Origin: Octopus vulgaris
Taxonomy: Eukaryota
Length of the DNA: 64,000 nucleotides
Assembly: GCA_951406725.2 (NCBI GenBank)
Contig: OX597816.1
Coordinates: forward strand, 108,810,001 to 108,874,000
Direction: 5' to 3'
Part shown: one piece after another, positions 5,848-62,365 of the stretch
Layout: the number at the start of each line of letters is the position of its first letter
How positions within the stretch are numbered: position 1 is the first letter of the stretch
Translations under genes and position numbers: made by a program
The notes under the pieces: generated by a model
Database searches by the model: none
Told to the model about the DNA's origin: nothing
The model's input: only the letters and a program-made list of their open reading frames with translations

Positions 5848-6305
5848 GCAAGGTTATGAGCTGGCAGAATCCTTAACACACTGGACAAAATGCTTAGCAG
5901 TATTTCGCCTGTTGCTCCATTCTGAGTTCAAATTCTGCTGAGGCCATCTTTACCTTTCATCCTTTTGGAGTCAATAAATTAAGTACTAGTGAAACACTGG
6001 GGGTCAATATAATTGATTAGTCCCTTCCTCCAAATTTCAGGCCTTGTGCCTTGAGTAGAAAGGATTATTATTATCATTATTATTGTTGTTGTTGTTGTTG
6101 TTATTAAGGTGGCAAGCTGGCAGAATGCTGGATGAAATACTTAGTGGTACTTCGCCCATGCTACGATCTGAGTTTAAATTCCGCTGAGGTCAACTTTGCT
6201 TTTCATCCTTTTGGGATCAACAAAATAAGTACCAGTTGAACACTGGGGTCGATGTAATCGATTCATCCACACCTCCCCCAAGCTGCCCTTGTGGCAAAGT
6301 TTGAA
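5705..6305 (+). mobile_element. Three head-to-tail tRNA-SINE (family B) copies separated by (TAT)n
   Basis: GAGCTGGCAGAAT A-box, GAGTTCAAAT B-box and GCCTTTCATCC..GGTCGATAAA..GTACCAG core (recalled as Meta/MESC-like, not verified). Confidence 0.8.
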
Positions 6306-6330
6306 ATAATAATAATAATAATGATAATAA

Positions 6331-6890
6331 ATGCCCTGACGCAGTACAAGACAGTGGCTTTCATGGCTTCTGATCTTAACTGATTGGAAGTGTTATCATG
6401 TACATTGTTTTGTCTTGCTATAAAAGATGGGCTGCAGCAAATATTCTACTCAATACCACAGATTTCCTTGTCAGTTGTTTGACCTTAACCAGCTGAGCAT
6501 GTCCCTTAGTGGTTTACGATATGTGCATCTCTGATCACAAGTAGAAGTAGTGGGGGGGGGGCATCATAGCCATGTGTTGAGAGGGATTCTTTGGGGTTTG
6601 AATAATTCACCTCTGGAAACATGGGTGTTTCATTTAACATCCTTAAACAACCCTTATTCAGGGACCTTTTGAGCAGCTAGGGCTACTTGACCAGAAGAAA
6701 ATTCTAACTGGGCCCCACCTTCAAGGTCATGCGCTGTTTATCTTGATATGAGATCACCATGTTGCGCACATATGGTTGTGATGCATGTGCCTAGTGTACC
6801 CTTATCAGGCGGGTAGTCATGATGGGTATACTGGGCTTTGTATATTTGACCCCAGTGTCACTTTGATGGCATGCGCTGCTCTCTCACTCA
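6331..6890 (+). mobile_element. ~560 bp non-coding retro-element (family D) inserted in (AAT)n
   Basis: Near-identical copies at 35330-35886, 25866-26235 (internally deleted) and 34878-35095 (inverted, truncated), all bordered by AAT repeats. Confidence 0.8.
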
Positions 6891-6920
6891 ATAATAATAA
6901 CAATAATAATAATAATAACA

Positions 6921-6954
<34 letters not shown>

Positions 6955-6955
<1 letters not shown>

Positions 6956-7395
6956 GCACTGGTATGGTCATGTGATGCATATGGACGAGGACAGCTGTGT
7001 TAAGAAGTGTTGATCTCTAACTGTAGAGGGAACCTGTGGAAGGGGTAGATCCAGGAAGTCATGGTACAAGGTGGTGAAGCATGATCTTTGAATGTTGGAC
7101 CTCATGAAGGCAATGATAAATGACCAAGCTCTCTGGTGTTGTGCTGTGCTTGAGAAGACCTATCAAGCCACTTGAAGTCGTAGTCATGGCCAATGCTGGT
7201 GTCACCTAACTGCCACTCATTACACCCATTACACTCTCATAGTGGTTGGCATTAGGAAGGGCATCCAGCTGTAGAAACCATACCAAATCAGATTGGAACC
7301 TGGTGTAGTCCTACAGCTCACCAGTTTCAGTCATACTAATGCATGCCAGCATGTAAAACAGACACTAAATGATGCTAATGATCATGATGATTATG
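6955..7395 (+). mobile_element. RTE LINE 3' end (ORF C-terminus plus 3' UTR)
   Basis: Translates WYGHVMHMDEDSCVKKC*SLTVEGTCGRGRSRKSW (RTE WxGHVxR...GRPxxxW motif) and runs directly into the family-A tail. Confidence 0.8.
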
Positions 7396-7739
7396 ATTAC
7401 CAAGAATGGTAGTGGATTAACAAAACCTTTAGAGTAGGAGAAAAAAATGCCTTGTGGTGTTTGCTCTTGCTCTATATTCTGAGTTCAAATTTCACTGAAG
7501 CCAACTTTGCCTTTCATCCTTCCAATGTAGTGGTGGTGGGGTGGCAATAAAATAAAGTACTAGTCAAGTATCAGGGACAATGGTATTAGCTAACTCCACT
7601 TCCCTTGAAATTGCTGGCCTTATGCCTAAATTAGAAACCATTATGGTGATCTGGCAGAATTGTTAGCATGCCAGGCAAAACGCTTTGTGCTATTTCATCT
7701 GTCTCACACATCTCACACAGAAGATCTCCATATTCTCTT

Positions 7740-8640
7740 ACTTGCATTATTACTTTTTTTGTTAAAAGTCTTTTAAGATTTGATGGTTGTCTTCAGCTGC
7801 TAATAATTTATGACTTCTTAATTATTTTTCTAAGATTTGATGATTGACATATAATTGGAAGGTATCATTTGACCAAATGCATGATGTTATGGTTTTTAGG
7901 ATTATGGGTTACTACAAATGGACTATTTCTGTTTTTGTCTTCCTTCTCATTGTGAGGACTTCTCTGTAAGTCAGATTAGGATTTCTCTGCTTTGATTATG
8001 CTATGATTTATTAAATTTTTCAGGTATATTTGTTTCTGGAGGAATATTTTTAGTTCAACCAGTCATCTTTTACACAAAGTTGAGTCTGTAGCTATTGTAC
8101 ATATTCTTCTTACCATATTTGATGGGATATTTCTTTTAAAATGGGGTGGATGGCAAGATGTGAAATTTAAGTTTTGGTGGGTGTCTGTGTCCTTGTAGTT
8201 GAAATTGGTTGCGATAATCTCATTTTCCTCAACTGCGAAAAAGGTTGAAAAAACACGATCTCTTTTATTCATTTCTAATGCAAACTGGATCGATTCAAAA
8301 GGGCTACTTATAAATTTAAAGAATCTTGCAAGGTCTTCTTTACTTCAGATCCAAAATGTGAAGTATTCATTCAGGAGTATTTTACAGTTGTCTCTTAAGT
8401 ATGATTGGGAATGTTGATCAAAAGTATTCCTAGATCGGAATAGACTTTTTTCTTCTACAAATTCCATCACTATTGTTGCAAACATGGGTGCTACTTTTGT
8501 ACCCATGGCCATCATTTTATTTGAAGGTGATATTGGCTATCAAAGAAGTTGTTATTTTCTAGTACCAATCTTTCTGGAGTCTCTTTATTTATCCAGAATT
8601 CCTTCTGATTCTTACAAGTTTCTAGACTGGAGGACATTAG
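7740..8640 (-). mobile_element. Penelope-like element reverse transcriptase relic
   Basis: Motifs MGTKVAPMFATIVMEFVEEK and YKDTDTHQNLNFTSCHPPHFKRNIP..RRICTI are characteristic of PLE RT; interrupted by stops and frameshifts. Confidence 0.8.
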
Positions 8641-13232: not shown

Positions 13233-13553
13233 TCGTGCCGGTGGCACGTAAAAAGCACCATCCGTTCGTGTCCGCTGCCAGCCTCGCCTGGCCCCCGTGC
13301 CGGTGGCACATAAAAAGCACCATCTGTTCGTGGCCGTTTGACAGCTCTGTCTGGCACCTGTGCGGGTGGCACGTAAAAAGCACCCGCTACACTCACGGAG
13401 TGGTTGGCGTTAGGAAGGGCATCCAGCCGTAGAAACACTGCCAGATCTGACTGGGCCTGATGAAGCCTTCTGGCTTCACAGTCCCCAGTAGAACCGTCCA
13501 ACCCATGCTAGCATGGAAAACGGACGCTAAACGACGATGATGATGATGATGAT
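13233..13553 (+). mobile_element. Family A copy with tandem GTGGCAC-TAAAAAGCACC units
   Basis: Three unit starts, then the conserved body and (GAT)n tail. Confidence 0.85.
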
Positions 13554-25865: not shown

Positions 25866-26235
25866 TGATGCAGTACCAGGCAGTGGCTCTCATGGCTTCT
25901 AATCTTAACTGACAGGAAGTGTTATCATGTACTTTGGAGCTTGAATGATTAACCTCTGGAAACATGGGTGTTTCATTCAACATCCTTAAATATCTCTTAT
26001 TCAGAGACATTTTGAGTGGGATGGGCTACTCAACCTGAAGAAAATTCTAACTGGGCACCACCTACAAGGTCATATGCTGTTTATCTTGATATGAAATCAC
26101 CATGTCGCACACATATGGTTGTGATGCATGTGCCTTGTGTTCCCTTTACCAGACGGATAGACATGATGGACATATAGGGCTTTGTATATTTGTACCCCAG
26201 TGTCACTTTGATGGCATTCACTGCTCTCTTGCACA
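25866..26235 (+). mobile_element. Family D element, internally deleted
   Basis: Matches both ends of 6331-6890 with about 200 bp missing. Confidence 0.8.
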
Positions 26236-26261
26236 ATAATAATAACAACAACAACAACAAT

Positions 26262-26745
26262 AATTCAGACAAAGATCATGTCTCCTCATTGATATGGCTG
26301 TCCCAATCGATATAAATGTATCTGTCAAGACCTACCAAAAACTGAGCCAGTATAAAGATCTTGAAATAGAAATTAACAAAATGTGGAACCTGAAGACTAA
26401 AACAATATCTGTTGTCATAGGTGCCCTAGGAATGATAGCAAAGGGGCTGATTGCTACCTTGCTCAGATACCAGGAAACCCCAAAATGGCAGAAATTCAAA
26501 AAATAGTGCTCATGGGAACTGCTCATATCCTATGCAAAATACTTTCTATGTAATCTCAAGTTTTAAAACAAACACATCATTTTCTTATGGTTTCTTAAAC
26601 ATTCACTAGTACAACACTTTGTACAAAACCAAATATATGGCACCCTAGGCATAACACCAACATTAACTTCCAACTTGTTGTCTCTTGAGGTCTCCGGGTG
26701 AGATTTGGAGCCAACTTGTACAAATGTAAAGTAAAAGTCAAACAT
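26262..26745 (+). mobile_element. R4/Dong-like non-LTR retrotransposon 3' end (restriction-like endonuclease remnant)
   Basis: LIDMAVPIDINVSVKTYQKLSQYKDLEIEINKMWNLKTKTISVVIGALG matches the RLE motif (D..P...K..KY..L...IGALG); flanked by AAT/AAC repeats, the known Dong target. Confidence 0.8.
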
Positions 26746-33500: not shown

Positions 33501-34769
33501 TTATCCTACCAATTTCCTTTGGTTGGGAACAAGCAGTTTTTCCTTGTGTGGTGGGTAAGATTGAAAGGACTGAAGACAGATAATTTTGTTTTCTTCAACT
33601 TTTTTAAGTTCCATTTGGAAAGGAAGTTAGGGTGGAGATGGAGACAGTGTTCTCCTGTAAATTTACTGAAAGGTGGGTGAGAACAGCTAGAATTGTTTAT
33701 GTGAATGAGAAAAAAGCCTGTCAAGGTTAACCTTTGCCCTTTCATCTCTCCAGGTCTCAATAAAATAAGGTTCCCATCAAGTACTGGGTTGATCTGAAAT
33801 TCCCATAAAGCATCCCGAACTTGAATGGAATTATAATAGAAAAATAAAGCTCTTTGAGCAGACATGATCAAAATTATTCCAACTATGGTCTTCCTGTTTG
33901 TTTGAGGAATATTTATGACTACACTATCTAATGTCTACTCCTTCAATTTTAAGATGGAAATATTTGATTTTGAGGAAATTTGGTTGCTATTTTTAGCAGG
34001 TTACACAGTCACATAAAAGGTCCCTTATGGCTACCTTTGATTTTGTTGTTGCTGTTATTGATGTCCTTGCTGCTGCTGCTGTTGTTGTTGTTGCTGTTAT
34101 TACCATTCATGTTCTGTTCACTAAATACACACACATGCACGCACACACACACACACACACTCACATACATACATATATATATATATATACATGCACATAA
34201 ATATACACACATATACACACATGCATACATATACATACATGCACATGTACACATACATACATGTACACTTGCATGTGTACATGCATACATATATATATAT
34301 ATATGGACACACATGCACACATACACATTCATGCATGCATACATGCATACATAGTCATACACACTCACACATGCGCACACACACACATGCGCGCGCACAC
34401 ACACACACATTCCAGCAAAATAAACATCAATAGCTCAGTAGTGCTGGATCAATAATGCATGGTTTCCTCTGACAGCATCCTAAATCTTTCATGCAGAGAT
34501 AGCTTCACCTGCTGTTCCACATGATGGCACACCTCATCAATACAACACAACATATATCTTACCACAGCCTTATATAACATAACAACATCAAAGAAGCCAC
34601 TATATGGTCACTAGATCTGTTAAAAATAGCAGCTAAATCTCCTTAAGAATCAGACATTATTATCTTCAAAAATATGTAACAGAGGCAATACAGTTTTATA
34701 TATAAGAGATTAGGGATTATGTACATTATTTACATTTGACAGATATTTGTCCTCATCTTGTTTGTTGTT

Positions 34770-34815
34770 AACACAACATTTCGGCTGATATACCCTCCAA
34801 CCATCATCAGGTGTC
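34770..34815 (-). ncRNA. Penelope-type minimal hammerhead ribozyme motif (probably decayed)
   Basis: GACAC CUGAUGA U GGUUG-gagggtatat-CAGCC GAAA UGUU GUGUU: stem I, intact core boxes and 5-bp stem II; stem III and the cleavage triplet are suboptimal. Confidence 0.6.
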
Positions 34816-35095
34816 TTGGGAAAATTTCGAATCTGGGTTCTCATTCCTAAGGTATTTTTCAATGTTATTATTATTATGTGAGAAAGCAGTGCATGCCATC
34901 AAAGTGACACTGGGGTAAAATATACGAAGCCCAGTATACCCATCATGACTACCCGTCTGATAAGGGTACACCAGGCACATGCATCACAACCATATGTGCA
35001 CGACATGGTGATCTCATATCAAGATAAACAGCACATGACCTTGCAGGTGGGGCCCAGTTAGAATTTTCTTCTGGTCGAGTAACCTATCCTGCTCA

Positions 35096-35135
<40 letters not shown>

Positions 35136-35202
35136 TCACTGCCTGGAATTGACCTTGGAATCTTGGGGTTAGTAGCCCGCACTCTTAACCACTATGCCCA
35201 CA

Positions 35203-35272
35203 GGCATATGGTGTAGTGGTTAAGAGCGTGGGCTACTAACCCTAAGATTCTGAGTTTGATTCCAGGCAGTGA

Positions 35273-35274
<2 letters not shown>
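35203..35274 (+). pseudogene. tRNA-like SINE head (ACT triplet in anticodon position), with inverted partner at 35131-35198
   Basis: A-box TGGTGTAGTGG, GGG-CTACTAA-CCC anticodon arm and B-box GAGTTTGATTC; poor acceptor stem. Confidence 0.65.
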
Positions 35275-35308
<34 letters not shown>

Positions 35309-36904
35309 TAATAATGTACAAGGCAGTGGCTATGCCCTGATGTGGTACCAGGCAGTGGCTCTCATGGCTTCTGATCTTAACTGATTGGAAGTGTCATCAT
35401 GTACATTGTTTTGTCTTGGTATAAAAGATGGGCTACAGCAAATATTCTGCTCAATACCACAGATTTGCTTGTCAGTTGTTTGACTTTAACCAGTTAGCAT
35501 GTCTCTTAGTGGCTGACGATATGTGCATCTCTGATCACGAGCAGAAGTAGTGGGGGAGCATCATAGCCATGTGCTGAGAGGGATTCTTTGGGGTTTGAAT
35601 AATTCACCTCTGGAAAATGGGTGGTTCTTTCAACATCCTTAAACAACCCTTATTCAGGGACCTTTTGAGTGGGATGGGCTACTCAACCTGAAGAAAATTC
35701 TAACTGGGCCCCACCTGCAAGGTCATGCGCTGTTTATCTTGATATGAGATCACCATGTTGCGCACATATGGTTGTGATGCATGTGCCTGGTGTACCCTTA
35801 TCAGACGGGTAGTCATGATGGGTATATTGGGCTTCGTATATTTTACCCCAGTGTCACTTTGATGGCATGAACTGCTCTCTCACTCAATAATGATAATAAT
35901 GATAATAATAATAATAATAACATTGAAAAATACCTTAGGAATGAGAACCTAGGTTCGAAATTTCCCCAAGACAACTAATGAAGTCTAGAGGGTATATCAG
36001 CCGAAATGTTTTAACAACAAACAAGATGAGGACAAATATCTGTCAAATGTAAATAATGTAAATGATGTAACAGAGGCATTCAAAAATTGAGATATACAAA
36101 GAAACAATATGGTTGTAGTAGGGAATGACTTTTACTCAGTCAGGGGTTGACCTATGACTAAACAATAAGAATGCAAGCCAAATGAGGGAGCCTCTATATA
36201 GTTTCTCTGCTTGAAATGACAGCTAAAATCTTTTTCAAATTACACTCTACCATCTATAATAAAATGATATTGGCAAATCTAATTTGACATAGGCAAAAAA
36301 AGACAGAATGATCACAACTGACTTGCCTTTGATCACATGTCTGCTCAATCAAGGTTTGCTTAGGGTTAAAAGATAGCCATATTATGTTCTGTCTCGTCTC
36401 ACCTGCTTTGCAATTTTGCTTAATGTTTCTGTAGCATTTGAAAAGCAGATAAACCACAAATTATGCCCAGGTTATTGACCTTCCATTTTATGTACTTATT
36501 GATTTATTTTGTTATGGTGCTTGCAGGACGTTGTTGATGTTATTTAACCTTAAGTCAACCTTCATCAAAGACATCTCACCAGTAACCAGCCTGTCCTTTT
36601 GTAAGTGGACAATATTATCTTATGTACATTTTCTTTTCTTAAAAGTGATCTGGTATGATTTGAAGATTTGGCAGCTATTATCTCTTGGTCAACCCTGATC
36701 CAAGATGCCTATGACCACATCACCAGCTTTTTTTCATCATTATCATTATCCTCATCATCATAATTTAACATCCATTTTCCATGCTGGCATGGGTTGGATG
36801 GCTTAACAGGAACTTGCAAGGCCAGGGGCTGCACCAGGTTCCATAATCTGTTTTGGCTTGGTTTCTACAGCTGGATGTCCTTCCAAATGCCAATCACTCT
36901 ACAG

Positions 36905-59819: not shown

Positions 59820-60700
59820 CTGAAGGTTGGCAATGAGTATAGTGAAGAATTCTGGGTAGGAGTAGGGTTCCACCAAGGATCAGTCCTCAGTGCCCGCAGT
59901 AAGACTTCCACCTGTCCACCTCCAAAAACCACCTTTTTTACAATTTTTTTTTTGACACAAACCCCCCTTTTCGGCTATGGAGAATATGAATCTGCAAAAA
60001 AGTGGCAAAAATCGACATTTCTAAATTAACCCCCCCCCCTCCCATTTCCTTCATTTTTAACTTTCTTCACAATTTTTCAAAATATGTGGAAAAATACGGA
60101 GATTATGATTCTGAAAAAAAATTTCCAAAATTCTTTGTAAAATTTTTTTTAAAGAATTTTTTTCTTCTAAATATGCGGAAAAATACGGACATCATGATTT
60201 GGATAAAAATTTCAATACATTTCTGTACTTACGATTACGGTTTTAGGGTTAGGGTTAAGATTAGGGTGTTAGGGTTAGGGTTTTAGGGTTAGGGTTATGG
60301 TTAGGGTTTTAGGATTAGGGTTAGTGTTGGAGAAAAAAGTCAAAATTGAAGAAGTTGTGGGGAAAGTGGGGTGGGAAATTTCACAATGCTAATTTTTGTC
60401 CATTTTCCGGAACCTCTGTATCTGAAAACGGGGATTTTTGGCAAAAAAAAAATTACAAAAATAAACAAATTTAGGAGAAAATGGGAGTGGGGGATGGGCA
60501 GAAGTCTTTCCGCGACCTCTTATTCATCATAGTCCTTCAGGCAATAACAGAGGAATTCAAGACAGGATGCATCTGGGAGCTTCTCTATACTGATGACCTT
60601 GCTCTAATAGCTGAGTTACTATCAGAACTAGAGGAGAAGTTTCAGGTGCAGAAGTAAGGTCTAGAATCAATGGGACTTAGAGTTAATCTAGCAAAAACCA
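59820..60700 (+). mobile_element. RTE RT fragment interrupted by a foldback element
   Basis: VGVGFHQGSVLS | LLFIIVLQAITEEFKTGCIWELLYTDDLALIAE (QG and YxDD RT motifs) is continuous across the insert. Confidence 0.85.
59895..60514. mobile_element. ~620 bp foldback/MITE with long imperfect TIRs and internal (TTAGGG)n
   Basis: Ends CGCAGTAAGACTTC and (rc) CGCGGAAAGACTTC; inverted similarity extends ~180 bp; telomere-type repeats at 60242-60325. Confidence 0.75.
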
Positions 60701-61660: not shown

Positions 61661-62365
61661 CATAAAGCACCATCTGAACGTGGCCGATGCCAGTGCTGCC
61701 CCGACTGGCTTCTGTGCCGGTGGCACATAAAAAGCACCATCTGAACGTGGCCGATGCCAGCCAGCACTGCCCCGACTGGCTTCTGTGCTGGTGGCACATA
61801 AAAAACACCATCCGAACGTGGCTGATGCCAGTGCCGCCCCGACTGGCTCCTGTGCCAGTGGCACATAAAAAGAACCATCCGAACGTGGCCGATGCCAGCG
61901 CTGCGCCGACTGGCTTCTGTGCTGGTGGCACATAAAAAGCACCATCCGAACGTGGCCGAGGCCAGCCAGCGCCGCCCCAACTGGCTTCTGTGCCGGTGGC
62001 ACATAAAAAGCACCATCCGAATGTGGCTGATGCCAGCGCTGCCCCAACTGGCTTCTGTGCTGATGGCACATAAATGATGACGTTGATAGCGCCGCCTCAG
62101 CTGGCTTCCGTGCCAGTGGCACGTTAAAAGCTCCAACCGATCGTGGCCAATGCCAGACCCCCCCTGGCACCTGTGCAGGTGGCACGTAAAAAGCACCCAC
62201 TACACTTGCGGAGTGGTTGGCGTTAAGAAGGGTATCCAGCTGTAGAAACTCTGCCAGATCAGACTGGAGCCTGGTGCAGCCCCTGGCTTCCCAGACCCCG
62301 GTCGAACCGTCCAACCCGTGCTAGCGCGGAAAACTGATGTTAAACGATGATGATGATGATGATGA
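61661..62365 (+). mobile_element. Family A copy with expanded 67-bp minisatellite (~8 units)
   Basis: Units start near 61661, 61726, 61797, 61864, 61931, 62002, 62069 and 62122, followed by the standard body and (GAT)n tail. Confidence 0.9.

Follow-up and report, generated by a model that had tools for sequence, protein, structure and literature searches.

A head-to-head pair of short Penelope/Poseidon pLTR copies with a tRNA-derived head in the genome of Octopus vulgaris

The locus at positions 34674–36078 was analysed within a window of 64,000 nucleotides of the Octopus vulgaris genome, which is 2.8 Gb in size and rich in microsatellites; all coordinates refer to this window, and family positions are counted from the G at 35203, taken as +1. 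The locus is bracketed by an exact 14-bp direct repeat, which has no third occurrence in the 64-kb window and had been correctly recognized as a TSD in the first-pass annotation; the first 5 bases of its right copy also match the short 3' end of the element. Two opposed arms with an inverted identity of 86–95% lie between the repeats, and the arms follow the order head, (AAT)n, insert X, (AAT)n and hammerhead region (Table 1). The mirror layout of ~1.4 kb described earlier holds for the opposed arms, but the description omitted ~790 bp of repeat X within the (AAT)n tracts. Similarly, the left tail, reported as ~40 bp longer than the right, is indeed extended on the left arm only, but by 34 bp.

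Together with this extension, the left arm matches amino acids 1–53 of the ORF of a Penelope-like element (PLE) at 85%; the right arm matches amino acids 1–42 at 79%. Base 35196 of the right-arm leader corresponds to family position -7, at which the 5' ends of the family cluster, and bases 35195–35198 are assignable to either arm (microhomology). Three derived changes, all at CpG sites, are common to both arms, and this sequence comparison suggests a single source for the two. The locus is a decayed, ordinary copy, namely a head-to-head pair of short Penelope/Poseidon pLTR copies, and not a separate SINE.

Table 1. Features of the locus in window coordinates
Feature	Position	Strand
TSD, left copy (14 bp)	34674..34687	+
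PLE 'tail' extension, 34 bp, left arm only; ORF nt ~124–157	34688..34721	-
Left arm: pLTR end and PLE ORF start, ATG 34844–34842	34722..34864	-
Minimal type-I hammerhead, intact core, left arm	34768..34818	-
(AAT)n tract, 3' part, left arm	34865..34877	-
Repeat X piece, 219 bp, 5'-truncated, later insertion	34878..35096	-
(AAT)12 tract, left arm	35096..35131	-
Left head, cut off within the A box; family positions +12 to +74	35132..35194	-
Native leader, right arm	35195..35202	+
tRNA-derived head; A box 35209–35219, B box 35254–35263	35202..35276	+
(AAT)13 tract, right arm	35277..35315	+
Repeat X, full copy, later insertion	35316..35885	+
(AAT)n tract, 3' part, right arm	35886..35920	+
Right arm: pLTR end and PLE ORF start, ATG 35941	35921..36064	+
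Decayed hammerhead, right arm	35968..36012	+
TSD, right copy	36065..36078	+

Repeat X, which accounts for ~790 of the 1,400 bp of the locus, is a young, non-coding element of ~555 bp with a fixed 5' end, which sits in (AAT)n tracts and is also found elsewhere in the genome; further copies in the window occupy 6305–6922 and 25866–26264. The two copies at the locus differ at polymorphic family sites and have no derived change in common in 221 columns, and were therefore inserted separately and later; the presence of X in the source RNA of the locus was ruled out on the same grounds. Copies of X deviate from their majority by 3.4% and heads from theirs by 8.1%, in samples that were selected differently. 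One copy elsewhere (L134) carries long arrays of 29-bp tandem units at its 5' end, which are sometimes seen in the family. LINEs of the Dong/R4 type target TAA repeats and are a candidate partner of X. Other repeats of the window include an interstitial degenerate TTAGGG array (60229–60328) and tandem units of 62–67 bp within an abundant interspersed repeat (61664–62074 and 13234–13384).

Genome-wide, the head was found within an autonomous element, the unit of which has the order ORF, stop, 30 nt, tRNA-like head, (AAT)n, ATG, hammerhead, ORF. Coding sequence for the RT thumb and the GIY-YIG domain lies upstream of the head. The ORF runs into the head in 26 of 30 loci selected by DNA, and the same holds for all 30 loci inspected among the 150 matches of a foreign GIY-YIG protein query; these 30 all represent the same family, and no head-less Poseidon family that could serve as a control was present among them. 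The majority ORF, built in-script, is an open frame of 835 aa, the ATG of which is located inside the 'tail'. It contains the motifs DKG, YVDD and GIY-YIG and has no CxxC linker of the Neptune/Nematis type; its identity is 37% to an 836-aa Anolis protein and 57% to P0010. The domain RVT_1 was found in 799 homologues and GIY-YIG in homologue P0062, and a Pfam search of one decayed copy gave a weak match (E 1e-4). The predicted motifs and the pLTR organization assign the element to the EN+ PLEs, Penelope/Poseidon.

Comparison of the tail with PLEs, which the first-pass annotation had proposed, revealed the homology expected there: the tail represents the first 123–155 nt of the PLE ORF, which continues into the rest of the ORF in near-full-length copies, and copies end either 123 or 155 nt into it. 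The pLTR is present in partial tandem and contains both the ORF start and the hammerhead. Since P0010, from another source, begins with an N-terminal peptide similar to that of the 835-aa ORF, the hammerhead region is coding. Downstream of one near-full-length copy (L146, reverse-strand 6657–8501), a direct duplication of ~925 bp comprises the 3' end of the element and flanking sequence.

A decayed PLE ORF at 7740–8640 of the window (minus strand), which the first-pass annotation had listed as a PLE RT relic, is only 27% identical to the 835-aa ORF over 175 aligned positions and for this reason is not the partner. It represents another PLE lineage, with motifs that we take to be Neptune-like, and carries 7 T4 runs in 901 nt.

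The state of the two hammerhead cores agrees with the earlier description: the left core is intact (CUGAUGA at 34804–34810, minus strand), while the right one is broken (CUAAUGA at 35975). In the left hammerhead, the predicted cut triplet is located at 34777–34775, and a C-to-T change is present in the palindromic helix III. Being on opposite strands, the two cores cannot pair in one transcript. A search of Rfam yielded no hammerhead or tRNA match at the locus or in 4 better copies, only low-complexity matches of the miRNA type; the family motif, in turn, has the core boxes, helix II and loopless palindromic helix III of a minimal type-I hammerhead, as described in the available part of the source (PMC4209133). 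On the model given in the same portion of that paper, the family hammerhead likely works as a dimer only and would be mostly uncut in the template. The predicted cut site lies at ORF nt 70, away from the ends at 123 and 155 nt, and a pile-up of 5' ends at the cut was absent, one of the 61 starts inside the tail lying at most 5 nt away. The ribozyme cut was consequently rejected as the copy boundary, and with it the claim that the element is ribozyme-terminated.

An exact 38-mer across the hammerhead has 1,620 matches in the genome, and its reversed control has none; at a divergence of 5–8%, an estimated 10,000–40,000 arms, roughly, are implied. Among 100 loci, which were the first matches on one contig with the exact 38-mer required and were classified by automatic BLAST parsing, an inverted head-to-head partner was found in 71 and single copies in 29. 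In most loci the head occurs linked to the tail. Flanks sharing a word of at least 9 bp were found for 27 of 60 inverted pairs, compared with 13 of the 708 mismatched controls, and TSDs are thus a trait of the family. Of 63 pairs scorable for the ~33-bp extension, 56 carry it on a single arm, 4 on both arms and 3 on neither. The combination of inverted pair, TSD and one-sided extension is the insertion footprint of PLEs, according to the accessible text of two sources (PMC8557442, PMC3846280). The expectations of the first-pass annotation that inverted pairs are common, that head and hammerhead are linked throughout the genome and that Penelope machinery moves the element were thus borne out. 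A DNA foldback element or MITE, with the fixed terminal inverted repeats expected of it, was rejected in view of the asymmetric ends, an inversion point that differs from locus to locus and the 29 single copies. Head-to-tail non-coding arrays bounded by hammerheads, by which non-LTR retrozymes are defined, were not what was found: inverted pairs dominate, and the ends lie off the cut site.

The tRNA-like nature of the head, with A and B boxes, was confirmed. Its 73-nt family sequence is closest to tRNA-Arg(TCG), with 49 identities (z 8.1 versus shuffles), among 27 distinct tRNAs, Ser and Asn isotypes being among those outside this sample. The cloverleaf of the family head is degenerate; in the window ARAGORN detected no tRNA, and it recognized the family majority as one only after the threshold had been relaxed. 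The native leader (-15 to +9; in part window 35195–35211) is an imperfect inverted copy of the first bases of the head and may be a remnant of an inversion by which the element acquired its tRNA head.

The 5' ends of the family have a sharp boundary at the head. Of the longest arms reaching +15, 53 of 63 stop between -20 and +15, where ~3 stops are expected from the upstream rate, none stops between -21 and -99, and the remaining 10 extend to -110 or beyond. At junctions without a full mirror arm, 36 of 39 starts are at -9 or downstream, and the native hairpin, which spans -15 to +9, makes the other 3 (-15, -15 and -20) ambiguous; a second cluster of starts (6/39) lies at -1, the predicted 5' base of the mature tRNA. 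Genome counts for 26 fixed bases are 3135 in the head (+12), 533 at about -110 and 367 at about -400, a 5.9-fold fall across the 5' boundary of the head, and the 28-mers number 1,664 inside the boundary versus 214 across it. Among pLTRs located upstream in tandem and reaching the head, 4 of 8 run past it into ORF sequence, so longer templates exist; stops at the head are less frequent here than in the longest arms (4/8 versus 53/63, P = 0.04), a smaller sample having given 1/5 and P = 0.005 before more loci were added.

All 47 exact genome matches of the tail-ORF junction motif were taken for the analysis of direct jumps from an ORF fragment to the pLTR. Such a jump, into the head or the bases immediately preceding it, is present in 11 arms and reaches -7 in 5 of them (4 of 10 loci), extra A-rich bases being present in 4 of these. 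The chimeric copies in question (L316, L322/L323, L330 and L345) consist of a 5' ORF fragment of 58–709 nt that continues into the pLTR at -7, in most cases through added A-rich bases, and are template-jump footprints. The R2 RT is known to add bases when it jumps from end to end, and the extra bases at -7 point to a genuine RNA end. The base at -7 is a purine and lies 13 nt upstream of the A box, as is usual for a Pol III start. No T4 runs are present on the sense strand of the 2,732-nt unit (P 0.003–0.027 under three nulls), a signal that is weakened by the absence of G4 runs from the same unit. Bulk RNA-seq, namely three raw runs and one contig set examined on one copy, showed near-equal depth in both directions and no clustered molecule starts; family RNA in these data contains many A>G and T>C differences, for which divergence among copies and editing are not separable. 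As the first-pass annotation had proposed, the 5' ends are best read as the product of Pol III initiation at the head.

The explanation that we consider probable is that the locus consists of head-to-head short copies of a Penelope/Poseidon pLTR, hit later, on two occasions, by the unrelated repeat X, and that the short copies stem from Pol III RNAs started at a tRNA-derived promoter in the pLTR. In the mechanism proposed, pLTR-ORF tandems would be transcribed by Pol III from ~13 nt before the A box into the ORF; the element protein would nick both target strands ~10–14 bp apart; reverse transcription would be primed internally at two sites, as in vitro for Anolis PAc; each cDNA would reach the 5' end of the RNA or stop early; and the two cDNAs would join head to head, giving the inverted pair, the TSD and the one-sided extension. 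For PAc, the accessible sections of the source (PMC11167929) report that reverse transcription starts internally 111–118 nt into the ORF, that the tail lies between two such start sites, that both target strands are nicked and extended, that the RNA requires the first 172 nt of the ORF and that hammerhead cleavage is dispensable in vitro. By analogy, solo short copies are likely dead ends rather than self-renewing SINEs, because the part of the ORF that PAc requires further downstream on its RNA is missing from them.

The same short copies could arise by ordinary PLE truncation; the head would then be an inert tRNA-SINE relic within the 3' UTR, and RT stalling or fold-back priming would be due to the hairpin at -15 to +9. 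The hairpin is indeed predicted at the boundary, short and long copies form one sequence pool, and for Adineta PLEs the part of the source at hand describes palindromes at pLTR 5' ends and proposes self-priming (PMC3846280). However, stalling would be expected to leave ends at the base of the stem on its 3' side (+9), and fold-back priming to produce symmetric centres. The ends seen extend to -7 to -9, where the edge is sharp, and this holds for single copies and for direct jumps with extra bases as well; the upstream pLTRs, moreover, stop at this boundary less often than the longest arms, and truncation is therefore judged unlikely. Far less probable still is that the 5' end results from an RNase P-type cut made in a long transcript where it adopts the tRNA-like fold: the cluster at -1 agrees with such a cut, but the cloverleaf is degenerate and many ends lie 6–8 nt upstream of that base, which leaves this origin very improbable.

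The first-pass annotation had instead seen an independent non-autonomous tRNA-SINE/retrozyme, which would amplify from its own short masters with Penelope enzymes. Such an element would fit the fixed 5' end, the A and B boxes, the TSDs, the excess of short copies over ORF-linked ones (~6:1 by genome motif counts) and the slightly lower divergence of short heads (6.6% versus 8.9%, in samples selected differently). Against it, the head sits inside the pLTR of an autonomous element, the extension and the jump partners are ORF sequence absent from solo copies, and the copies end away from the ribozyme cut. In addition, no substitution in head or tail separates 96 short from 41 ORF-linked arms, except one at the variable 3' edge, and thus a SINE-specific subfamily was not found among them; this argues against an independent SINE and is silent on Pol III. 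As an origin it is improbable and largely refuted, and Pol III RNAs started in the pLTR remain the preferred source.

In the accessible parts of the relevant papers, Poseidon_Ac of Anolis (PMC11167929) and Pen2a_Av of Adineta (PMC3846280) resemble the octopus element in the single ORF of ~835 aa with RT and C-terminal GIY-YIG, the pLTR with ORF start and hammerhead, the inverted 5'-truncated copy, the TSD, the optional one-sided tail of 30–40 bp and a copy end ~110–155 nt into the ORF. Unlike both, as far as these parts describe them, the octopus pLTR holds a tRNA-derived A/B-box module and (AAT)n, and most copies begin there; Pen2a_Av has a putative TATA/Inr promoter, and the word 'tRNA' is absent from the available main text of the Adineta paper (PMC3846280). 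The hammerhead SINE-like elements of Schistosoma, in the portion of the source available (PMC6765202), likewise combine a Pol III promoter, which is predicted in the octopus, and a following hammerhead in one short repeat. They are described as non-coding, often tandem and ribozyme-released, in contrast to the octopus unit, which is part of a coding PLE and forms dispersed inverted pairs for which the cut is not the boundary. Animal non-LTR retrozymes also possess a type-I hammerhead and derive from PLE pLTRs, according to the accessible text on them (bioRxiv 10.64898/2026.07.22.740005; PMC7761336). As described there, they form head-to-tail tandem arrays, whereas the octopus units carry a tRNA head and stand head to head in pairs flanked by TSDs.

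Retroposons derived from tRNA, with families related to tRNA-Arg, were reportedly described in octopus by Ohshima and Okada in 1994. The likeness lies in the tRNA-derived short repeat and in a head nearest tRNA-Arg among the 27 tRNAs sampled, and the short form may already have been catalogued as a SINE without its link to a PLE; a literature search on octopus SINE names found nothing. A tRNA-type promoter in the pLTR of an autonomous PLE was not found in the literature searched, most subscription papers being outside its reach, and is absent from the available portions of an octopus repeat annotation (PMC13282606) and of PMC8967140. The insertion pattern is already known; the novelty lies in the sharply defined 5' edge, which coincides with a tRNA-derived, putative promoter within the pLTR of a PLE.

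Neither the promoters of PLEs nor the way in which their inverted pairs arise is well understood. In this family, many copies map the 5' terminus of the template RNA to a few bases beside the A box, and both internal priming sites are mapped to the ORF start, which provides an independent genomic match to the in vitro result in Anolis. For annotation, these data are a warning that an apparent tRNA-SINE can be a PLE pLTR. Should the Pol III reading be true, the element would be a retrotransposon that codes for protein and possesses a Pol III promoter, for which the literature searched gave no precedent. It is conceivable, although rather improbable, that an autonomous Penelope captured a tRNA promoter from which, the whole 2.7-kb unit being free of Pol III terminators, Pol III could make the protein-coding RNA and also, via internal priming, many SINE-like copies; such an element would be its own SINE and would represent a new route of SINE origin.
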